Positions 9,880 through 47,639 of a stretch of 64,000 nucleotides of DNA are shown piece by piece (positions within the stretch are counted from its first letter, which is position 1; each line of letters starts with the position of its first letter). Source of the DNA: Eledone cirrhosa (Eukaryota); NCBI GenBank assembly GCA_964016885.1, contig OZ024741.1, positions 343,046,001 through 343,110,000 on the forward strand. Direction: 5' to 3'. The notes beneath the pieces were generated by a model. That model was not told where the DNA came from. It saw nothing but the letters and a program-made list of their open reading frames with translations, and did no database searches. The position numbers were made by a program, and so were the translations under genes.

Positions 9880-10082
9880 TTGGTTTCTGATTTAGGTACA
9901 AGGCCAAAGATTTTGGGGAAGGGGAAAGTCGATTAATTCGACCCCAGTGTATTACAGGTGCGTTATTTCATCGAGCCCGTAAGGATGAAAGGCAAAGCTA
10001 ACCTCGGCAGGATTTGAAATTAGATCGTAAAGGGACGTAACACTATGCCATAAAGCATTCCGACGCTCTACCGTCACTACCG
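9880..10082 (-). mobile_element. tRNA-derived SINE family A (5' end clipped by the adjacent element)
   Basis: Matches the family body ...gccgaggttaactttgcctttcatccttacggggtcgataaaataaagtaccagt seen in more than 10 copies in the window. Confidence 0.85.
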
Positions 10083-10084
10083 AA

Positions 10085-10623
10085 AGAAGTGTGCTTAACC
10101 AAACAGAGAGAGAGAGAGGAAAGAACAGTCTTTCCTCTCTCTCTGTCTGGTTGAGCACACTTTGAGTGGTTTGGGGGCTGCCCTTTCTAGCACCTCGTCC
10201 CCCAGACACCACCGGTTCACTGCCCTAAACACGCTGTGACATCTCTCTGCCGCGTGTAGCTGGACGGTCCCTTTAGATTCTCTTAGAGTTGTCTGAAATG
10301 TATAGTCTTGCACGCGCTGATGAGTCATAGGCGATTCCATTTCAGTCAACAACTTCCTGGCGAAACAGATGTCTTTGGATTTGTACGCGTGTATTATATA
10401 GTTATAGAGGTGCGTATATACATTTTAATATTTATTTTTAATTATTGTGTGTCTACCCTGCCTTCCATAGATTATAGACTCCATACACTGGTGGTTTTCC
10501 CTGTCTTATTGATGGCGCACTATCTCTCTCTAGTGTGTTACCCTTTCAACAGATTGTATTTTAAAGAGCTCAGGATTCCTTTTCCTTTGAGCACATTATT
10601 GACAGGGAATAACGAGAGTCTGA

Positions 10624-16162: not shown

Positions 16163-16360
16163 AGTAAAAATAGAAGCTTTCACCATATTTTTCACTAAAG
16201 AAATTTTAGCCTGATAGTGGGGTTTAAAACCCTCTAAAAAGTGGAAAAGGATGAGTGTATCTCAATATCCATCCTTTTCCATTTTTAGAGGGTTTTAAAC
16301 CCCACTATCAGGCAAAAATTTCTTTAGTAAAAATATACGGTGAAAGATTCTATTTCTACT
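16163..16360. repeat. About 90-bp-arm hairpin of a dispersed repeat (related to 2299-2388)
   Basis: cctgatagtggggtt / aaccccactatcagg arms. Confidence 0.75.
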
Positions 16361-17063
16361 AAATTTCAAACTTCGTTCGCTGTTTCAAAAAAAAATTTAC
16401 TTAAGAATAGTGAAAATAAAAATAAGAATAAAGAATATATGTAAAAAATGGACACTGTAACACTAACGTACAATTACGTCATGAGAAAGACTCGTATGAA
16501 TAGTCCATAATTCTATAAATAGTATAAGTTATCTAACATCCTCACGAATATATTACGAAAACAAACAACTTGAGATTAGTTGTAAACAAAACGCCAAAAT
16601 ACCAACACCAATCTAGCATTAAAAACAACAATAACAAAAAAAAAAAAAAAAAAATGAAAATGGCTGATATAATCTAAGCACAATTAATTAGGAGATATAA
16701 ACAAAATGCCGTGACTAATCTAAACGGTTTAACCCCCAAGGATAAATGTTTTAGTGAGATACAATCAAGATAATATATATATAAGTATGTACACGTACAT
16801 ACATATATGTATACCGACGTACAGTAGTATGTATATATATATATACATACATGCACACATATATATATGCACGTATGAATTCACCGAACATTTATTATAA
16901 TGCTCGGTGTGTTTGTAAACAAACATCCCGTATTAAGCCGTTTCATTTTTTCCGTTTATCAATATATATATATATATATATATATATTCCTTTCCATATA
17001 CTGTACGATTGTGTTGTTATTTCTGTTTACCTTTTTCACACACACACACACACATATATATAT

Positions 17064-17815
17064 AATTGAATAAACAAGAGAGATGAACACTAATATAAAC
17101 ATACATGTGTTCGAATCGTAAGGACCAAGTTTGATAGGGTGAAAAAATACTAACTACAGCAATACGGTTTGTCAGACTTAATTTTAAGTATTAAATTAAG
17201 AAAAATAACAGACCTATATCGGGCAATCGCCTGGTAACAACTAGACAGTGTTGGAGACTGCTTCGCAACATCTTATTAAGTGAAGTCCACACTTTTCTCT
17301 GCTCCTCTGTAGTTGTTGAGAAATTAGTGATCCTTCCACTTCTAAAAATATTAGAGGAATGAATTGTGTACGATAAGAATTATCGCATGTGTCTTCGAAA
17401 CCCAGCTTGTCTCGAAATTCCATGCCGCTAAAAATAGCAGCCTGGTTGACAGGACATTAAAATTAGCTCTACATGATGGAGCCGACAAATATATAGTGAG
17501 TTAGAAACTCAGAGTAGTCTCTTATAATTAAATAGCTCTAAGAAAAAAGCTTTTCCGAGCCATGTAATATAATTGAATAAACAAGAGAGATGAACATAAA
17601 TATAAACATACATGTGTTCGAATCGTAAGGACCAAGTTTGCTAGGGTGAAAAAATACTAACTACAGCAATATGGTTTGTCAGACTTAATTTTAAGTATTA
17701 CATTAAGAAAAATAACAGACCTATATCGGTTAATCGCCTGGTAACAACTAGACAGTTTTGGAGACTGTTACGCAACATCTTATTAAGTGAAATCCACACT
17801 TTTCTCTGCTCCTCA
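17064..17815 (-). mobile_element. Partial tandem (about 1.5 x 507 bp) non-coding element with one hammerhead per unit
   Basis: Direct repeat starts at 17064 and 17571; hammerhead motifs at 17236-17317 and 17743-17815 on minus strand; flanked by (TA)n. Confidence 0.75.
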
Positions 17816-17896
17816 TATATATATATATATATATTGCCACACATCTCGGAAGTTGTTTTTCGCGAATTTCCAATAGCCGAAATGCGATTCTCGCTA

Positions 17897-17939
<43 letters not shown>

Positions 17940-17940
<1 letters not shown>

Positions 17941-18759
17941 TTATAAGAAAATTAGGTTTTTTTTACACAAAGAAACGAGCTATCTTACACGAGGGAAAGT
18001 ATAAGGAAAATAAATCGAAAATACAGCTGGAGTCTTTTTAAGAATATTTATTTGTTTCCTTTACCGGTTCCACAGTTCTAATGCTTTTCAAAAGTAGAAT
18101 TGAGATGGAGGGTTTGTGGTTTGTCTCGCATCTGGTTGGTGTTCGAAAATTATTTCTGTTTCATGTGGAAAGAGTGGCTCGAATTGCTGGTTTTTGTTAA
18201 AAAAATAATTTGCTTGGTTGATGACTGTCACGTGAATATGTACAATGAATTTCGCGCCAGTTCGCGTTCAAAGTTTTATTGTATTTGTCTTTAAAAATTT
18301 CGCTCAAACTGTTGTTTTTTATTAGTGTAATTTGGTTGGTTGATGACTGTCACGTGAATAAGTACATCAAACTTCGCGCCAGTTCGTGTTTGAGGGTTTT
18401 TTATTGCCATTTTCAAAGTTACATGATTGGCCATATAATATAGATGGTTTGTGATAGAGATAATGGTTAAGAAGTGGAGGGGGGGGGGGGACAAATCGTT
18501 CTGGTTCAGTGGGTATGGCTAATGTGGTGAGGTGTCAAAATTCAGACTTTCTATTGAAATAAATGACAGTCACCAATCCAGCAATTCAAGCCACTCTTTC
18601 CATAAAACAGAAATAACTTTCGAACACCAACCAGATGCGAGAAAAACCACAAACCCACCATCTCAAATCTACTTTTGAAAAGCATAAGAACTGTGAAACC
18701 GATAAAGGAAACAAATAAATATTCTTAAAAAGATTCCAGTTGCATTTTCGATTTATTTT

Positions 18760-18766
<7 letters not shown>
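17940..18766. mobile_element. Fold-back element with about 190-bp arms
   Basis: Arms 18000-18190 / 18578-18766; consensus of arms GAAAC-CG-GTA then AATAAA; internal 65-bp direct repeat near 18215 and 18336. Confidence 0.6.
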
Positions 18767-18800
<34 letters not shown>

Positions 18801-18903
18801 TGTATATATAGTATATTTGGCAATATACTGTATGCTTAATTAAAAACATTTTGAAGACCTTACGCTATTGTTTTAAAGTAGTGACTATGTAGCTTACTTC
18901 TTT

Positions 18904-18996
18904 TTTTCAACAAACAAAGGGAGATAAGCTGACAGATCTCTGTTTCATACTGTTGGTATTCATCAGAGCTTAGCACTCGCCTTTGTCTGTTGAAAA
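18904..18996 (-). ncRNA. Type I hammerhead ribozyme, canonical and compact, with extended stem I
   Basis: Minus strand: taagct-CTGATGA-atac(caaca)gtat-GAAA-cag(agat)ctg-TC-agctta; stem I continues about 20 bp past an internal loop. Confidence 0.9.
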
Positions 18997-19082
18997 TTAT
19001 AAATGTTGGATTCTTATAGAATTCCAGTAATAATCAGGAACTGATTATACAGAGCGATAAATACAGACATATACATATATGT

Positions 19083-19830
19083 GAGATAAACACATACATA
19101 TACATATATGTGTTCAAATCGTAAGGGACCAGATTCGCTAAGGTGAAAAAGATACTAACTATGGACAATAGGGTTTGCCAGACTCAATTTAAGAATAAAT
19201 CAAGAAAATAAATACAAACCGGAATTGTGGTAGCTACCAATCACCAGACAGCGTTTGGCTATGCTGTTTAACAATCCAATTGTGAAGAGAATTACCAATT
19301 CTTATTGTTCATCAGTGGGTGAAAAATTAGTAAACTCCTCACTTCTAAGTACATCAGAAAACTGAATTGTGTGCGTATATACAATAATGCACGTGGTATC
19401 AGAGCTAGCGTGTCTCACAAACTCATACCACTAAAAATAGCAGCCAAGTTTACTTGACATTTAAATTAGCTCAACAAATCAACGGAGCCGAATATATCAA
19501 AGGTATATATTGAGTTAGAAACTCAAAATAATCTCTTACAATAAAATAGCTCTAAGAAAGAGATTTTTCCGAGCCGTATATTATAATTGAATATAAAAGA
19601 GAGATAAACACAGACATGTACATATATGTGTTCAAATCGTAAGGGACCAGATTCGCTAAGGTGAAAAAGATACTAACTATGGACAATAGGGTTTGCCAGA
19701 CTCAATTTAAGAATAAATCATACCACTAAAAAATCTGGTCCCTTACGATTTGAATACATATGTATATGCCGGTGTTTATCTCTCTTTTATATTCAATTAT
19801 AATATACGGCTCGGAAAAATCTCTTTCCGT
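19083..19830 (-). mobile_element. Relative of the 17064 element: 518-bp unit, partial tandem plus inverted copy
   Basis: Repeat starts 19083 and 19601; inverted segment about 19732-19828; hammerhead motif 19241-19322 (-). Confidence 0.75.
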
Positions 19831-19843
19831 GAGCTATTTCCGT

Positions 19844-20232
19844 GAGCTTGCGAGAATGAAAAGAATATACATGCCTGTATATTCTTTTCATTCTCGCAAG
19901 CTCCGATGAACTGACTGGTTATAACTTTGTATTGGCGATCGAGTAACGTGAAAATAAGCGGATAGCGATCTCTAGACCTATCAGTTCAGAGAAACAATTG
20001 TCAGCAATGAGATTAAAACCCTTTTTTGCATAGCAAACCGTGTCACTTATCTTTCCTGATTTATTATTACTCCAAGTGTTTACAACATAGGAATTACAGC
20101 GTACTCGCAGCATCACTATGGAAACGCCTTGTTGAGTCAAACTTAGCCAAGCGTTGATATCATCCACTACCCGGAGTACCATAACTGGACTACACCTAAG
20201 TGGACTACCTATAACAATAATTTGTTACCCCG
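19844..20232 (+). mobile_element. Fold-back element with variant hammerhead (CCGATGA core)
   Basis: Perfect 28-bp hairpin about 19844-19903; gct-CCGATGA(19903-09)...GAAAC-AATT-GTC-agc(19991-20005). Confidence 0.55.
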
Positions 20233-28399: not shown

Positions 28400-29111
28400 T
28401 CATCAGCACCAACAGTACTACCATGACTACCAACACCTCAACTAGTAACACCACCACCACCATTACTACCAACACCTCAACTAGTAACACCACCACCACC
28501 ATTACTACCAACACCTCAACTACTAACACCACCACCACCATTACTACCAACACCTCAACTAGTAACACCACCACCACCATTACTACCAACACCTCAACTA
28601 CTAACACCACACCACCATTACTACCAATACCTCAACTACTAACACCACCACCACCATTACTACCAACACCTCATCTACTAACACCACCACCACCATTACT
28701 ACCAACACCTCAATTAGTAACACCACCACCACCATTACTACCAACACCTCAACTAGTAACACCAACATTACCACCAGCAGCACCACCACCACCACCACTA
28801 CCACCACCAACACCACCACCAGCACTACCACCACAACCACCACCACCACCAATCACCACTACCACCACCACCACCACCACCACCAACCACCACCACAACC
28901 ACCACCACCACCAGCACCACCACCACCTCCACCACCATCACCACCACCATCACCACCACCAGCACTACTACCACCACAACCACCATCACCACCCACCACC
29001 ACCACCACCACCACCACCACCAACCACCACCACCACCACCACCATCACCACCACCAGCACTACTACCACCACAACCACCATCACCACCAACCACCAGCAC
29101 CAACCACCAGC

Positions 29112-29142
<31 letters not shown>

Positions 29143-29430
29143 CCACCACCACCACCCACCACCACCACCACCAACCACCACCACAACCACCACCACCACC
29201 AGCACCACCACCACCTCCACCACCATCACCACCACCAGCACTACTACCACCACAACCACCACCCACCACCACCATCACCACCAACACCACCACCACCACC
29301 TCCACCACCACCACCACCACCACCACCACTAGCACCATCACCACCACCAGCACTACTACCACCACAACCACCATCACCACCAACCACCAGCACCAACAAC
29401 CACCACCAGCACCACCACCACCACCACCAC
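28400..29430. repeat. 39-bp minisatellite grading into (CCA)n
   Basis: accaacacctcaactagtaacaccaccaccaccattact about 9x. Confidence 0.9.
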
Positions 29431-37500: not shown

Positions 37501-37539
37501 CAACAAGGACAACCGCAACAAAGACATCAACTAAAATGA

Positions 37540-39106
37540 CACCAACAGCAACGAAAAGAACAACAACAACACAACATCAAAGAAAACAACAACAACAACA
37601 ACGAAGACAACAACAACCACAAAAACAGCATTGACAACAACAACGACAACATCAACAACCACAAATATGGCATTGACAACAAAAACGACAACAACAAGAA
37701 CAACAACCACAAAAACAGCATTGACAACAACAAAGACAACAACAACAACAACAACAACCACAAAAACAGCATTGACGACAACAACACACAACAAACACAA
37801 AAACAGCATTGACAACAACAACGACAACGACAACAACAACAACCAATAAAAACAGATTTAACAACAACAACGACAACAACAACAACCACAAAAACAGCAT
37901 TGACAACAACAACAAAAACAGCATTGACAACAACGACAACAACAACAACCACAAAAATTGAATTGACAACAACAACGACAACAACAACAACAACAACCAC
38001 CACAAAAACAGCATTGACAACAACAACTACAACAACAACCACAAAACAGCATTGACAACAACAATGACAACAACAACAACAACCACAAACACAGCATTGA
38101 CAACAACAATGACAACAACAACAGCAACCACAACCACAAAAACAGCATTGACAACAACAACAACAACAACCACAAAACAGCATTGACAACACAACAACAG
38201 CAACAACAACAACCACAAAAGCAGCATTGACAACAACAAAGACAACAACCACAAAAACAGCATTGACAACAACAACAACAACAGCAACCACAAAAACAGC
38301 ATTGACAACAACAATGACAACAACAACAACAACAACAACCACAAAAACAGCATTGAAAACCAAAATGACAAGAACAGCAACCACAAAAACAGCATTGACA
38401 ACAACAACTACAACAACAACAACAACCACAAAAACAGCATTGACATCAACTACAACAACAGCAACAAAAACAGCATTGACAACAACTACAACAACAACCA
38501 CATAAACAGCATTGACAACAACAATGACAACAACAACAACAACCACAAAAACAGCATTGACAACAACAACTACAACAACAACAACAACAAAAACAGCTTT
38601 GACAACCACAACAATAACAACAACAACCACAAAAGCAGCATTGACAACAACAATGACAACAACTACAACAACCACAAAAACAGCATTGACAGCAACAACA
38701 ACAACAACAACCACAAAACAACACTGACAACAACAATGACAACAACTACAACACCACAAAAACAGCATTGACAACAACAATGACGACAACAACAGCAACC
38801 ACAAAAGCAGCATTGACAACAACAACCACAAAAACAGCATTGACAACAACAATGACAACAACAAAAGCAACCACAAAACGGCATTGACAACAACAATGAC
38901 AACAACAACAATAACCACAAAAACAGCATTGACAACAACAACAACAACCACAAAAACAGCATTGACAACAACAACAACAACAACAACCACAAACAACAGC
39001 ATTGACAACAACAATGACAACAACTACAACAACCACAAAAACAGCATTGACAACGACAACGACAACAACAACAACAACCACAAAAACAGCATTGACAACA
39101 ACAACT

Positions 39107-39137
<31 letters not shown>

Positions 39138-42100
39138 AAACAGCATTGACAACCACAACAATAACAACAACAACCACAAAAACAGCATTGACAACAACAA
39201 TGACAACAACTACAACAACCACAAACACAGCATTGACAACAACAACAACAACAACCACAAAACAGCATTGACAACAACAATGACAACAACTACAACACCA
39301 CAAAAACAGCATTGACAACAACAATGACGACAACAACAGCAACCACAAAAGCAGCATTGACAACAACAACCACAAAACAGCATTAACAACAACAATGACA
39401 ACAACAACAATAACCACAAAAACAGCATTAACAACAACAACAACAACCACAAAAACAGGATTGACAACAACAACAACAACAACCACAAACAACAGCATTG
39501 ACAACAACCACAAAAACAGCATTGACAACAACAATGACTACAACTACAACAACCACAAAAACAGCATTGACAACAACAACGACAACAACAACAACAACCA
39601 CAAAAACAGCATTGACAACAACAATGACAACAACTACAACAACCAGAAAAACAGCATTGACAACAACAACGACAACAACAACCACAAAAACAGCATTGAC
39701 AACAACAACAACAACAACAACAACAACCACAAAAACAGCATTGACAACAACAATGACAACAACAACAGCAACCACAAAACAGCATTGACAAAAACAACTA
39801 CTACAACAACAACCACAAAAACAGCATTGACAACAACAATGACAACAACAACAACCACAAAAACAGCATTGACAACAACAACAACAACAACAACCACAAA
39901 CAACAGCATTGACAACAACAATGACAACAACTACAACAACCACAAAAACAGCATTGACAACGACAACGACAACGACAACAACAACAACCACAAAAACAGC
40001 ATTGACAACAACAACTACAACAACAACAACAACAAAAACAGCATTGACAACCACAACAATAACAACAACAACCACAAAAACAGCATTGACAACAACAATG
40101 ACAACAACTACAACAACCACAAACACAGCATTGACAACAACAACAACAACAACCTCAAAACAGCATTGACAACAACAATGACAACAACAACCACAAAACA
40201 GCATTAACAACAACAATGACAACAACAACAATAACCACAAAAATAGCATTGACAACAACAACAACAACCACAAAAACAGGATTGACAACAACAACAACAA
40301 CAACAACCACAAACAACAGCATTGACAACAACCACAAAAACAGCATTGACAACAACAATGACTACAACTACAACAACCACAAAAACAGCATTGACAACAA
40401 CAACGACAACAACAACAACAACCACAAAAACAGCATTGACAACAACAATGACAACAACTACAACAACCAGAAAAACAGCATTGACAACAACAACGACAAC
40501 AACAACCACAAAAACAGCATTGACAACAACAACAACAACAACAACAACCACAAAAACAGCATTGACAACAACAATGACAACAACAACAGCAACCACAAAA
40601 CAGCATTGACAAAAACAACTACAACAACAACAACCACAAGAACAGCATTGACAACAACAATGACAACAACAACAACAACCACAAAAACAGCATTGACAAC
40701 AACAACTACAACAACAACAACAACCACAGAAACAGCATTGACAACAACAACTACAACAACAACCACAAAAACAGCATTGACAAAACCAATGACAACAACA
40801 ACAGCAACCACAAAACAGCATTGACAACAACAACTACAACAACAATAACCACAAAAACAGCATTGACAACAACAATGAAAACAACAACAACAACCACAAA
40901 AACAGCATTGACAACAACAACTACAACAACAACAACAACCACAAAAACAGCATTGACAACAACAATGACAACAACAACAGCAACCACAAAAAACAGCATT
41001 GACAACAACACCTACAACAACAACAACCACAAAAACAGCATTGACAACAACAATGACAACAACAACAGCAACCACAAAAACAGCATTGACAACAACAACA
41101 ACAACAACAATAACCACAAAAACAGCATTGACAACAACAACTACAACAACAACAACAACAACCACAAAAACAGCATTGACAACAACAACAACAACAACAA
41201 CCACAAAACAGCATTGACAACAAGAACAACAACAACCACAAAACAGCATTGACAACAACAACAACAACCACAAAAACAGCATTGACAACAACAACTACAA
41301 CAACAACAACAACAATCACAAAAACAACATTGACAACAACAATGACAGCAACAACATCAACCACAAAAACAGCATTGACAACAACAACTACAACAACAAC
41401 AGCAACCACAAAAACATCATTGACAACAACAACTACAACAACAACAGCAACCACAAAAACAGCATTGACAACAACAACAACAATAATAACCACAAAAACA
41501 GCATTGACAATAACAACAACAACAACCACAAAAACAGCATTGACAACAACAATGACGACAACAACAGCAACCACAAAAACAGCATCGACAACAACAATGA
41601 CAACAACAACAGCAACCACAAAAACAGCATTGACAACAACAACAACAACAACATCAACCACAAAAACAGCATTGACAACAACAATGACAAGAACAACAGC
41701 AACCATAAAAACAGCATTGACAACAACAATGACAAGAACAACAGCAACCACAAAAACAGCATTGACAACAACAACAACAATAATGACAACAACATCAACC
41801 ACAAAAACAGCATTGACAACAACAATGACAAGAACAACAGCAACCACAAAAACAGCATTGACAACAACAACTACAACAACAACAGCAACCACAAAAACAT
41901 CATTGACAACAACAACTACAACAACAACAGCAACCACAAAAACAGTATTGACAACAACAACAACAACAATAACCACAAAAACAGCATTGACAACAACAAC
42001 AACAACCACAAAAACAGCATTGACAACAACAATGACAACAACAACAGCAACCACAAAAACAGCATTGACAACAACAATGACAACGACAACAGCAACCACA

Positions 42101-43385
42101 AAAACAACATTGAGAACAACAGCAACAACAACAATGACAACAACAACATCTACCACAAAAACAGCATTGACAACAACAATGACAAGAACAACAGCAACCA
42201 CAAAAACAGCATTGACAACAACAATAACAACAACAACAGCAACCACAAAAACAGCATTGACAACAACAACTACAACAACAACAACCACAAAAACAGCATT
42301 GACAACAAAAATGACAACCACAAAAAACACCATTGACAACAACAACAACAACAATAACCACAAAAACAACATTGACAACAACAACTACAACAACAACAAC
42401 AACCACAAAAACAGCATTGACAACAACAACGACAACAACAACAACCACAAAAACAGCATTGACAACAACAACTACAACAACAACAACAACAACAACATTG
42501 ACAACAACTACAACAACAACAAAAACAGCATTGATAACAACAACTACAACAACAACAACCACAAAACAGCATTGACAACAACAACTACAACAACAACAAC
42601 CACAAAACAGCCTTGACAACAACAACAACGACAACAACAACAACCACAAAAACAGCATTGACAACAACAACTACAACAACCACAAAAACAGCATTGACAA
42701 CAATAACTACAACAACAACAACCACAAAACAGCATTGACACAACAACTACAACAACAACAACAACCACAAAAACAGCATTGACAACAACAACGACAACAA
42801 CAACAACCACAAACACAGCATTGACAACAACAACTACAACAACAACCACAAAAACAGCATTGACAACAACTACAACAACAACAACCACAAAAACAGCATT
42901 GACAACAACAATTACAACAACAACAACCACAAAAAAAGCATTGACAACAACAACTACAACAACAACAACCACAAAACAGCATTGACAACAACAACGACAA
43001 CAACAACAACCACAAAAACAGCATTGACAACAACAATGACAACCATAAAAACACCATTGACAACAACAACAACAACAATAACCACAAAAACAGCATTGAC
43101 AACAACAACTACAACAACAACAACCACAAAAACAGCATTGACAACAACAACGACAACAACAACAACCACAAAAACAGCATTGACAACAACAACTACAACA
43201 ACAACAACCACAAAAATAGCATTGACAACAACAATGACAACCACAAAAACACCATTGACAACAACAACAACAACAACAACCACAAAAACAGCATTGACAA
43301 CAACAACTACAACAACAACAATCACAAAACAGCATTGACAACAACAACTACAACAACAACAAAACAGCATTGACAACAACAACGA
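37540..43385. repeat. 5.8-kb CAA-based minisatellite
   Basis: Anchor accacaaaaacagcattgac plus variable (caa)n, more than 100 units. Confidence 0.95.
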
Positions 43386-43445
43386 TTACTAATGGAAGTA
43401 ATGGAAGTTAACGTTGAGTAGTGTAGTTCTAAATATCAAAATGGG

Positions 43446-46400
43446 TGCCACCGCTGCCGCCGCCGCCGTCACCACCGTCGCCGCCACCACCACCACTACC
43501 ATTACTACCAACACACCAACCATTACCGCCACCATCACCACCGCCACCACAACCACCACCATCACCACCACCATCAACAACACCAGCACCACCATTACTA
43601 TCAACACATCAATCATTACCACCACCATTACCAGCACCAGCACCATCGCCGCCACCGCCACCACCACCACCACCACCACCACCACCACCACCACCACCAC
43701 TACATTACCACCACCAATCCCACCACCACCACCACCACCATCACCACCACCACCACCACCACCACCACCGCCACCGCCACCACCACCACCACCACCACCA
43801 CCACCACCACCACCACCATCACCACCACCACCACCACCATCACCACCACCACCACCATCACCACCACCACCACCACCACCACTACCACCACCACCACCAC
43901 CACCACCACCACCACCACTACCACCACCACCACCACCACCGCCACCGCCACCACCACCACCACCACCACCACCATCACCACCACCACCACCACCATCACC
44001 ACCACCACCACCATCACCACCACCGCCACCACCACCACTACCACCACCACCACCACCACCACCACCACCACCACCACCACCATCACCACCACCACCACCA
44101 CCATCACCACCACCACCACCGCCACCGCCACCACCACCACCACCACCACCACCATCACCACCACCACCACCACCATCACCACCACCACCACCATCACCAC
44201 CACCACCACCACCACCACTACCACCACCACCACCACCATCACCACCACCATCACCACCACCACCACCACCACCACAACCATCACCACCACCACCACCACC
44301 ACCACTACCACCACCACCACCACCACCACCACCACCACCACCACCACCACTACCACCACCACCACCACCGCCACCACCACCACCACCACCACCACCGCCA
44401 CCGCCACCACCACCACCACCACCACCACCACCACCACCACCATCACCACCACCACCACCACCATCACCACCACCACCACCACCATCACCACCACCACCAC
44501 CACCACCACCACCATCACCACCACCACCACCACCACCACCACCACCACCACTACCACCACCACCACCACCACCACCACCACCACCACCACCACCACTACC
44601 ACCACCAGCACCACCTCCACCACCACCACCAACACCACCGCCACCACCACCACCACCACCACCACCACCACCACCACCACCACCACCACCACCACCACCA
44701 CTATCACCACTACCACCACCAGCACCACCAGCACCACCACCAGCACCACCACTATAACCAGAACCACCATTACCAGCACCAACACCACCAACCACCGCCA
44801 CCATTACCACCACCATTACCAGCACCACCACCATCAGTACTCCCCCTCCCCCACCACCACCATTACCACCACCATTAGCAGCACCACCACTACCAGTACC
44901 ACCACCGGCACCAGCACCACCACCACCGCCACCATTACCACCACCATTACCAGCACCACCACCACCGCCACCATTACCTCCACCATTACCAGCACCACCA
45001 CCATCCGTACCACCACCACCACCAGCATTACCAGCACCACCACCACCAGTACCACCACCCGCACCACCACCACCACCACCACCACCACCACCAGTACCAC
45101 CACCCGCACCACCACCACCACCACAAACACCACCACCAGTACCACCACCAGCACCACCACCACCGCCACCATTACCTCCACCATTACCAGCACCACCACC
45201 ATCCGTACCACCACCACCACCAGCATTACCAGCACCACCACCACCAGTACCACCACCCGCACCACCACCACCACCACCAGTACCACCACCCGCACCACCA
45301 CCACCACCACAACCACCACCACCAGTACCACCACCATTACCAGCACCACCACCACCGCCACCATTACCTCCACCATTACCAGCACCACCACCATCCGTAC
45401 CACCACCACCACCAGCATTACCAGCACCACCACCACCAGTACCACCACCCGCACCACCACCACCACCACCACCACCACCACCAGTACCACCACCCGCACC
45501 ACCACCACCACCACAAACACCACCACCAGTACCACCACCGGCACCAGCACCACCACCACCGCCACCATTACCTCCACCATTACCAGCACCACCACCATCC
45601 GTACCACCACCACCACCAGCATTACCAGCACCACCACCACCAGTACCACCACCCGCACCACCACCACCACCACCAGTACCACCACCCGCACCACCACCAC
45701 CACCACAACCACCACCACCAGTACCACCACCATTACCAGCACCACCACCACCGCCACCATTACCTCCACCATTACCAGCACCACCACCATCCGTACCACC
45801 ACCACCACCAGCATTACCAGCACCACCACCACCAGTACCACCACCCGCACCACCACCACCACCACCACCACCACCACCAGTACCACCACCCGCACCACCA
45901 CCACCACCACAACCACCACCACCAGTACCACCACCGGCACCAGCACCACCACCACCGCCACTATTACCACCAGCATTACCAGCACCACCACCACCACCAT
46001 CACCACCATTACCACCATACCACCACCATTAGCAGCACCACCACCACCAGTACCACCACCACCACCACCACCATACCACCACCATCACCACTACCACCAC
46101 CAGCACCACCAGAACCACCACCACTACCACCACCACCATTACCAGCACCACAACAACCACCACCACCACCACTATAACCAGCACCACCTCCACCAGCACC
46201 ACCACCATTACCAGCACCAACACCACCAGTACCACGACGAGCACCACCACCACCGCCACCGGCACTATTACCACCAGCATTACCACCAGTACCACCAGCA
46301 CCACCACCAGCACCCCCCCCCCCCCACCATCACCACCACCATCACCACCAGCACCACCAGTACCCCACCCCTCCCACCAATACCACCACCACCACCACCA

Positions 46401-46450
46401 CCAGTACCCCACCCCATCCCACCAGTACCACCACCACCACCACCACCACC
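43446..46450. repeat. 3-kb (CCA)n tract with higher-order repeats
   Basis: Nearly pure CCA 43650-44700; about 390-bp period in 44900-45960. Confidence 0.95.
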
Positions 46451-47639
46451 ATAGTGGTCCAGTTGCAGTCAAATCAGCTTTTCAACTGCAAATGTTTTCA
46501 AAACGGATTTCTGCAATATATCTTTTCCTTTCTTCTTAAATGATTTGAGGGAATTTGGCTACTATTGTTAGAGGCTCCTTAGTAGGCGCACTTTACAGTT
46601 TCGTTTATTTTGTTACTCCTATCGTCATTTTCTTGTTCGTCTTCTAAGAACCGCCCCCAAATTAATTACTGATATCAATATATCTTCTATTATGGTATTT
46701 TAAGCAGTTTTATCTTGATCGTCTCACCTCTTTACCTAGTTATCTATCTCTGAACGTACTTACTGTAAAAGTATTCGAAGCGGATTATTAAATTTCAAGT
46801 GTCCACAATATCTGCTTATAACTGTTCTTCGTCTGATGAATTTAACATTAAATGATTTCTCCGTATAATTGTTTGAAGATTGCTTTCATCTATACATTTT
46901 TTTATGGTGACATGTTCATATAAGATATTTTCCTTAATTGGTTTCTTACAGGGAACGCCAAAACTCCATAGAAAATCACTTCCATGGAACGAGAAAAATG
47001 TCAATTGTAGCATTGACATGAAACTGCTATAATCTGATTGGTTAATTTATAATTTGTTTTAAACTTTCAGAATATGCAAGGGATGTTCATTTAGTAGTAT
47101 GAATCTTTTTATTTTCTATTTTTTTCTTATTAATGCGGTGCACTATTAGAGTATTTATGAATGAATGATAGGCTGAGCGAATGTCTTGAGTTGTCAGTAA
47201 TAAAGAGCGTTGCAGATAGGTGACTTTGATATGACGACAGCCTTTTCCAATATGTCTGTCACCTAGTCTGTCACCTAAATAAACAGTGGTTCATGATGTA
47301 GACAGTTTTCTAAGTACACAGCTTATAAGAAGGCCGGATTTTTGCATTTTTTAAGGCAGAGTGAGTTTTCTCTTGAAGCTACACAATATATACAGTGTGC
47401 TCACTTTTTACGCGAAGATGCGTTCGTGAACGAGATTTAGATAACTCCGCAAAAAATATCAAATGTGAGTCAAATATCCAGAGTTACTTCTGTATGATTG
47501 ATGATAAATCATTAATAGTAATCATAAAATTATTTAGAGATTGAACATACGAAGCGCTGAGGAGTTATGAAGTTCATAGAAAATGTAAAATGTAAACCCC
47601 AGATGCAAAACTAACTGTATCCAATAGGTCGCTATAAAT

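Follow-up and report, generated by a model that had tools for sequence, protein, structure and literature searches.

Hammerhead Motifs and Insertions in the Window

The 64,000-nucleotide stretch of Eledone cirrhosa DNA analyzed here (contig OZ024741.1, positions 343,046,001 to 343,110,000; hereafter the window) carries on its minus strand two related repeat units of about 510 bp with hammerhead ribozyme (HHR) motifs, which raises the question of what these units are and how they were written into the genome. The analyses indicated, with a probability of about 0.8, that they are decayed copies of a protein-free family of about 510 bp with a type I HHR motif and Penelope-type ends, likely copied in trans by the proteins of Neptune-type Penelope-like elements (PLEs).

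Scanning of the 64-kb window with a type I HHR descriptor returned three sites, two on the minus strand (Table 1) and one on the plus strand at 10314-10388 with zero core mismatches, against a background of 0.05 matches per shuffled 2.4 kb and two matches in 0 of 100 shuffles. The three minus-strand motifs described in the first-pass annotation were all found in the sequence with the lesions it had listed, by the descriptor scan and, for the motif ending at 17815, by a covariance model built in this analysis for HHR scoring; the unit periods of 507 and 518 bp were also correct. The HHR motifs in the window are real. Motif A2 has an 8-bp stem I, a stem II gca/tgc with a 32-nt loop and a stem III cagt/actg, both core segments are mutated (CAGAGGA and GAAG; two core mismatches in the descriptor scan), and cleavage is predicted 3' of C17244. 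In motif A1, which is clipped by the 5' end of insertion A, the 5' strand of stem I and the first base of the core are missing and the remaining core reads TGAGGA; GTAA replaces GAAA, and cleavage is predicted 3' of C17751. In motif B the CTGATGA core is intact, the second core segment is mutated to TAAA, stem III is cagc/gctg, the 3' strand of stem I is short by one G, and cleavage is predicted 3' of C19247. Because the A locus holds one 5'-cut and one doubly mutated HHR, and the B locus a single mutated one, the window copies are unlikely sources of monomers. The Rfam hammerhead model was unmatched in 17050-17830, and no hammerhead was present among the 150 of 311 Rfam matches listed for the whole window.

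Table 1. Coordinates of the repeat units, HHR motifs and neighboring elements in the window.
Feature	Position	Strand	Description
Family C element, unit of ~540 bp	10124..10621	plus	Found by descriptor; covariance model 33.4 bits (not a training sequence)
Subfamily A insertion (locus L001)	17060..17815	minus	1.49 units of 507 bp
HHR motif A2, type I	17236..17317	minus	Descriptor 17312-17241; covariance model 64.4 bits (training sequence of the model)
A tail, optional, 78 nt	17489..17567	minus	Short 3' site, unit 429 (17567), to long 3' site, unit 507 (17489)
HHR motif A1, 5'-cut	17743..17815	minus	Covariance model 49.5 bits
Inverted pair between A and B	18000..18766		~74-80% homologous to the pseudo-LTR of coding Neptune-type PLEs of the same genome
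Subfamily B insertion, forward arm (locus L031)	19075..19720	minus	~1.25 units of 518 bp
HHR motif B, type I	19241..19322	minus	Descriptor 19318-19244, one core mismatch
B tail, optional, 85 nt	19492..19577	minus	Short site (unit 433) to long site (unit 518)
B insertion, 5' inverted arm	19732..19839	plus	Unit positions ~357-466

A and B share 73.6% identity over 639 nt and were inserted separately; the stretch between them holds a third insertion that is unrelated to them. Insertion A is truncated at its 5' end within the first HHR core, terminates at the short 3' site, is bounded by (TA)n on both sides and differs by 5.5% from the column majority of 30 best-hit copies. Insertion B differs by 4.8% from the column majority, and its 3' end is rearranged, with a short duplication at 19039-19083. 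The inverted pair at 18000-18766 contains a minimal HHR-like motif with a core that begins TTGA, not CTGA, and lies outside the A/B family; short non-coding pairs resembling it were also seen at other loci (L177), and the pseudo-LTRs (pLTRs) of Neptune elements may possess non-autonomous forms of their own.

Other features of the window were recorded. A 60-nt near-perfect palindrome (19844-19903) adjoins B's inverted arm, and at 16189-16333 a 59-nt sequence is repeated in inverted orientation across a spacer of 27 nt. Very long trinucleotide-type repeats with strong strand skew occupy 37539-46451 (about 5.8 kb of ACA followed by 3 kb of CCA), and a strongly strand-skewed 1-kb CAC repeat occupies 28449-29430. 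The stretch at about 9880-10030 on the plus strand resembles a common octopod SINE, and the AT microsatellites likewise suggest an octopod.

The A/B Family in the Genome

Searching the whole 3.0-Gb genome with the intact-core expression CTGANGAGCA-N26-34-TTGCGAAACAG gave 717 exact matches, and the reversed-pattern control gave 0. The intact consensus proposed in the first-pass annotation was thus recovered in real family copies, as a CTGANGA/GAAA/GUH type I core with three stems. A similarity search returned 2,435 first-look candidates for unit A and 3,671 for unit B; the best 40 scored per unit showed 86-95% identity, the window's own copy aside. In best-hit copies chosen without regard to the core, the intact-core expression fitted 12 of 40 A rows and 21 of 35 B rows. 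They sit 2-5% or more off the column majority, and no fully identical young copies were seen. A 3' anchor motif had 1,886 matches in the genome (control 0), and the core and anchor matches included additional subfamilies at about 70-85% identity. The longest stop-free frame in the unit is 71 codons, in line with the earlier description of the unit as non-coding, and no PLE protein similarity was found in it at E < 0.5. A and B are sister subfamilies of one dispersed, protein-free family of about 510 bp.

The loci studied were a few hundred among thousands of copies, largely on one contig. Loci L227, L231, L233, L245, L285, L152-155, L170, L187 and L225 were left out of the counts as overlapping or duplicated. 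Within each of the pairs L151/L225 and L284/L285 the insertion layout is the same, and L151 and L225 share 1.7 kb of flank at 93%; these pairs are segmental duplications or assembly duplicates.

Covariation and Predicted Folding of the Hammerhead

The A/B family carries a type I hammerhead core with putative self-cleavage. Stem I has 7-8 bp (AACAACTA/TAGTTGTT in A and TCACCCA/TGGGTGA in B), longer than originally annotated, and helix II has 3 bp with a loop of about 30 nt. For the covariation analysis, 36 diverse copies with an intact core were combined with the two window copies. Double changes occurred in five of the seven stem I pairs and in one of the four stem III pairs, the outer one; 89.9% of the cells were paired, compared with 23-36% in slid-register controls, and the 43 double-change cells exceeded the 14.6 found in shuffles (0 of 500 shuffles). 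Since the rows are related by descent and 36 of the 38 were selected with an expression in which stem II and some of stem III are preset, this covariation supports the fold without proving it. Stems I and III and the UH were kept in 82 of the 96 intact-core loci.

Compensatory changes had been claimed for all three stems. The claim held for stem I and for the outer pair of stem III, and it failed for stem II because the aca/tgt change is private to the window B copy, the only one in which A and T occur together, and represents decay; in the unselected B copies the first stem II base was G in 33 of 35 and its partner C in 33 of 35. Elsewhere in the covariation set, whose selection pattern presets it, stem II did not vary.

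Energy-based folding gave a less favorable picture of the junction, which RNAalifold did not predict. All three stems exceeded a probability of 0.5 in only 6 of 75 intact-core copies (75 of the 96 loci, 21 without a parsable stem III having been dropped), and the mean probability of stem II was 0.19. A loop II hairpin was predicted in 77 of 96 copies compared with 479 of 960 shuffles, at a varying position. In the A/B flanks, stem I was predicted to continue past an internal bulge (L032, L004; ACTAAT with ATTGGT in B). In type I HHRs, tertiary contacts with loop II arise at such a bulge region of stem I.

Insertion Ends and a Proposed Mode of Copying

The ends of the insertions were determined in 75 loci taken in genome order and picked by their intact core. 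In 60 of the 75 the 3' end coincided with either of two fixed positions separated by about 80 nt (unit 429/433 or 507/518), and 3' ends lay in TA in 61, in a genome that is itself (TA)n-rich. A 5' inverted arm was present in 49 loci, and 27 of the 28 classifiable inverted pairs combined one long and one short end. In a pooled set of HHR-selected and 3'-anchor loci, which overlaps the 75-locus sample, 182 of 208 arms belonged to the two end classes and 39 of 42 inverted pairs were long plus short (p = 3e-9). The 5' ends were scattered, and the copies are 5'-truncated, mostly shorter than two units and not in tandem arrays.

An optional tail at one end only, 5' truncation, partial tandem (pLTR) structure and 5' inversion are thus all present in the A/B family. 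In the accessible text of Craig et al. (PMC8557442), PLEs are described with partial tandems, inverted 5' copies, a tail that is often one-ended and a bias toward microsatellites, and Frangieh et al. (PMC11167929) identified the PLE tail as the stretch between two internal reverse transcription start sites. The end pattern of A/B is this published tail signature.

The following mode of copying is proposed. A few source loci would give rise to transcripts longer than one unit, and Neptune-type PLEs resident in the genome would supply the reverse transcriptase (RT) and GIY-YIG endonuclease that copy the units in trans. The PLE protein would nick (TA)n DNA and begin reverse transcription at an internal position of the RNA, either about 180 nt or about 260 nt downstream of the cut site, and inverted insertions would use one start site for each arm. 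The template would be unbroken across the HHR, as a re-ligated monomer circle or as an uncut multimer.

Probable Continuity of the Template Across the Hammerhead

The predicted cut site was reached by 54 arms and passed by 48, and 5' ends did not pile up there within a 30-nt window (6 of 54, p = 0.59). A post hoc 6-nt window contained 5 ends (P of about 0.01), placed by eye about 4-11 nt downstream or a few nucleotides upstream of the site and in several cases at inversion junctions; a minor share of the templates may have been cleaved. Because 48 of the 54 arms read through and stops are not in excess, the template appears to have been continuous across the HHR, as a ligated circle or an uncut multimer. 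This read-through makes an RNA circle plausible as an intermediate. As to the template itself, a re-ligated monomer circle is slightly favored over an uncut multimer, at a little below even odds, since a ribozyme kept under structural constraint within an ORF-less unit would, without a circle, do nothing but destroy the RNA that serves as its template. When folded as circles, the monomers were predicted to be more stable than shuffles (z from -1.9 to -6.2, six of six negative, 25 shuffles each). The full reading, in which a Neptune PLE protein, starting from two fixed sites within the circle, writes animal retrozyme circles into the genome, is tentative.

A linear alternative is just as tentative: the family would be a non-autonomous PLE without a circle, copied from a linear uncut transcript of a partial-tandem locus, with an HHR that is weakly active or serves another step. 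It is consistent with the finding that uncut RNA was the dominant substrate of the anole PLE in vitro and that HHR cleavage was unneeded for insertion in that system (PMC11167929), with the predicted weakness of stem II, and with the rarity of loci carrying two HHRs. Only 5 of 182 arms were long enough for two complete HHR sites, and the exact two-HHR pattern, which gives a lower bound, was found genome-wide in at least 8 loci, 3 of them with CTGANGA in both motifs and none in a long array; about a full unit was reached by 18 of 90 arms. These counts also bear on the first-pass proposal of one ribozyme per unit releasing monomers able to circularize, of which one canonical type I HHR per non-coding unit was borne out and simple monomer release proved too simple. 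In Xenopus, cleavage was detected in only one of nine retrozyme dimers, according to the accessible text of a preprint (bioRxiv 10.64898/2026.07.22.740005).

Termination of the arms offers a further argument for the linear transcript. It was 0.08-0.15 per 50 nt below 400 nt and 0.39 at 500-600 nt, and it rose about 444-535 nt upstream of the anchor in 23 of 32 short-ended and 9 of 12 long-ended arms, as a transcript start region would give. The rise, however, does not discriminate, because it extends over about 90 nt and coincides in part with TA-rich sequence that can be joined to (TA)n targets through microhomology; it is equally compatible with a transcript start region, with TA microhomology and with a circle on which strand displacement is poor. 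A test for copies that stop after exactly one turn showed no significant difference (Fisher p = 0.74 and 0.33), and repeats of one locus did not resemble each other more closely than their best counterparts elsewhere (3 of 28, a noisy comparison with short 3' ends and repeated loci). What weighs against the linear transcript is that core and stems were kept, with compensatory changes, across subfamilies only about 70-75% identical.

If the circle reading is true, the genome records a still hypothetical step in the mobilization of animal retrozymes, and the record consists of a PLE tail on ORF-less units with a canonical HHR, read-through of the ligated cut site and copies that exceed one unit in the absence of tandem arrays. 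Within this one genome, at least two families of unrelated sequence (A/B and C, described below) would do so, beside an intact helper frame. With two predicted RT start sites and a candidate open-frame helper, linear and circular templates could be compared in the published in vitro PLE assay.

Coding Neptune-Type Elements as Candidate Helpers

A GIY-YIG search of the genome gave 10,597 first-look candidates, of which the best 150 were scored. Locus L131 (1992-4805, minus strand) has an open frame of 938 codons with a GIY-YIG match, an RT match below the Pfam cut-off (E = 2e-6) and a Neptune-type cysteine linker CxxxxCxxC, and it is flanked by pLTRs on both sides and has a (TA)n end. An open frame of 1096 codons at L133 (983-4270, plus strand) belongs to another Neptune-type PLE family. 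A minimal HHR-like motif, in which a palindromic 4-mer replaces stem III, was found in 33 of 70 GIY-YIG loci. Two 3' ends, both following the HHR, are likewise a feature of the coding families, and in each of the three inverted coding loci observed (L136, L142, L144) a long end was combined with a short one. The minimal HHR-like motif varies among at least six PLE families (CCGG or GTAC palindrome). A divergent PLE family (L141, L195, L206, L314-L317), about 20-23% identical to Neptune proteins as judged from L195, has (TA)n ends and lacks a clear HHR. The ORFs upstream of L098, tried as a partner, were rejected as belonging to a LINE (APE+RT).

The shared order of HHR and 3' ends in these coding elements leaves room for a different origin, in which the units would have been left behind as truncated ends (pLTRs) by a rare coding PLE. 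Such an element would lie outside the sample, which covered a few hundred of thousands of copies and mostly one contig. This case, which the first-pass annotation had named as one that would overturn its reading, was examined and not found, and it is improbable. Copies that extend further upstream continue with the preceding unit and not with coding sequence. A PLE frame continuous with an A/B unit was seen in none of 175 loci and, among the matches listed for 3 of 7 query proteins, in none of a set of 82 loci; the PLE frames inspected nearby belong to separate insertions, which are mostly bounded by (TA)n. An A/B-type HHR lay downstream in sense in 0 of 70 GIY-YIG loci (70 of the 150 scored), and the A, B and C units matched the untranslated regions of the coding families only through nested insertions in these 70 loci of the 10,597 candidates.

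Amplification as DNA, by unequal crossing over or rolling circle, of a classical tandem HHR satellite of which the loci would be orphan monomers is very unlikely: head-to-tail repeats do occur, up to about 2.5-3 units at L024/L028, but no long array was found in the assembly, which could collapse arrays, and the fixed 3' ends, ragged 5' ends, inversions and (TA)n targets are marks of retrotransposition.

Family C

The element on the plus strand of the window belongs to another family, for which BLAST gave no similarity to A/B. Its HHR (10309-10394) has an intact core and a 32-nt loop II, and its 3' ends lie at 10563 and 10621, with inversions and (TA)n as in A/B. The spacing within the HHR equals that of A/B, and the genome holds 343 exact core matches (control 0). 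In most copies the first pair of stem II is a mismatched A-C (CTGATGA-ACC ... GGC-GAAA) and the cut triplet is GUA; in the window copy this position is a G-C pair. The pattern of two ends and inversions was recognized by eye in 7 of 20 family C loci. A chance resemblance to the hammerhead, to which the unmatched Rfam models and the energy folding might point, is hardly credible given the 717 intact cores against 0 in the control, the covariation and this third family with different stems and the same core spacing.

Comparison With Known Systems

In a literature survey made up largely of open-access papers, no such family was found in a cephalopod and no tails were found in retrozymes; the accessible part of the Octopus vulgaris repeat paper (PMC13282606) mentions neither ribozymes nor retrozymes. 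Judged from its sequence, the A/B family is a new non-autonomous PLE family of the animal-retrozyme kind, a kind that is itself known. For A/B, retrozyme and PLE derivative are not alternatives, because the units carry the PLE insertion signature, which the first-pass annotation had missed.

As described in the accessible text of Cervera and de la Pena (2020; PMC7229834), metazoan non-LTR retrozymes resemble A/B in having a GC-poor non-coding unit with one canonical type I HHR, no visible LTR, PBS or PPT and a self-paired predicted monomer, and in coexisting with PLEs that carry minimal HHRs. The units of A, B and C are longer (507-540 bp, compared with about 170-400 nt, and 350-390 bp for the mussel repeats), A/B copies are dispersed, 5'-truncated and mostly shorter than two units instead of arranged in tandem arrays, and the 3-bp helix II with a loop of about 30 nt also sets A/B apart.

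With EN+ PLEs of the Neptune clade, as far as these are covered in the available portions of PMC8557442 and PMC11167929, A/B shares partial tandems, 5' truncation, the 5' inverted arm, a one-ended optional tail, microsatellite targeting and an HHR upstream of the 3' ends. Unlike these elements, A/B has no ORF, its tail is longer (78-85 nt, and about 58 in C, compared with 30-40 bp), and its HHR has a full 4-bp stem III instead of the minimal palindromic form. The putatively non-autonomous PLEs of the Chlamys type such as MRC1, in the text available from PMC8557442, are likewise short non-coding PLE derivatives with pLTRs and head-to-tail copies; they generally share 3' sequence with an autonomous family, unlike A/B as sampled, and most of them lack the canonical HHRs that A/B has.

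Mobilization of animal retrozymes by PLEs was proposed in 2020 in the consulted portion of PMC7229834, where PLEs figure as proposed mobilizers only, whereas in A/B the PLE insertion signature is visible. According to the accessible text of a review of the same year (PMC7761336), retrozyme repeats show no motif pointing to a mobilizer; the tail and inversion pattern of A/B is such a pointer. The recent preprint of Li, Clavereau and Pollet (bioRxiv 10.64898/2026.07.22.740005), in its available part, treats animal retrozymes as PLE derivatives and reaches the same conclusion on origin and mobilizer as drawn here for A/B. The A/B unit length falls within its range of 51-972 bp, and many monomers occur in both. 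Its criterion of two consecutive complete HHRs applies to at most 3 of the two-HHR loci counted above and not to the window loci. The preprint argues from co-occurrence and pLTR homology in vertebrates, whereas A/B showed no homology to the sampled coding pLTRs and its link lies in the end architecture. The A/B family thereby adds an independent type of evidence, in that protein-free units with a canonical HHR show the one-sided tail and the inversion pattern that mark PLE integration.
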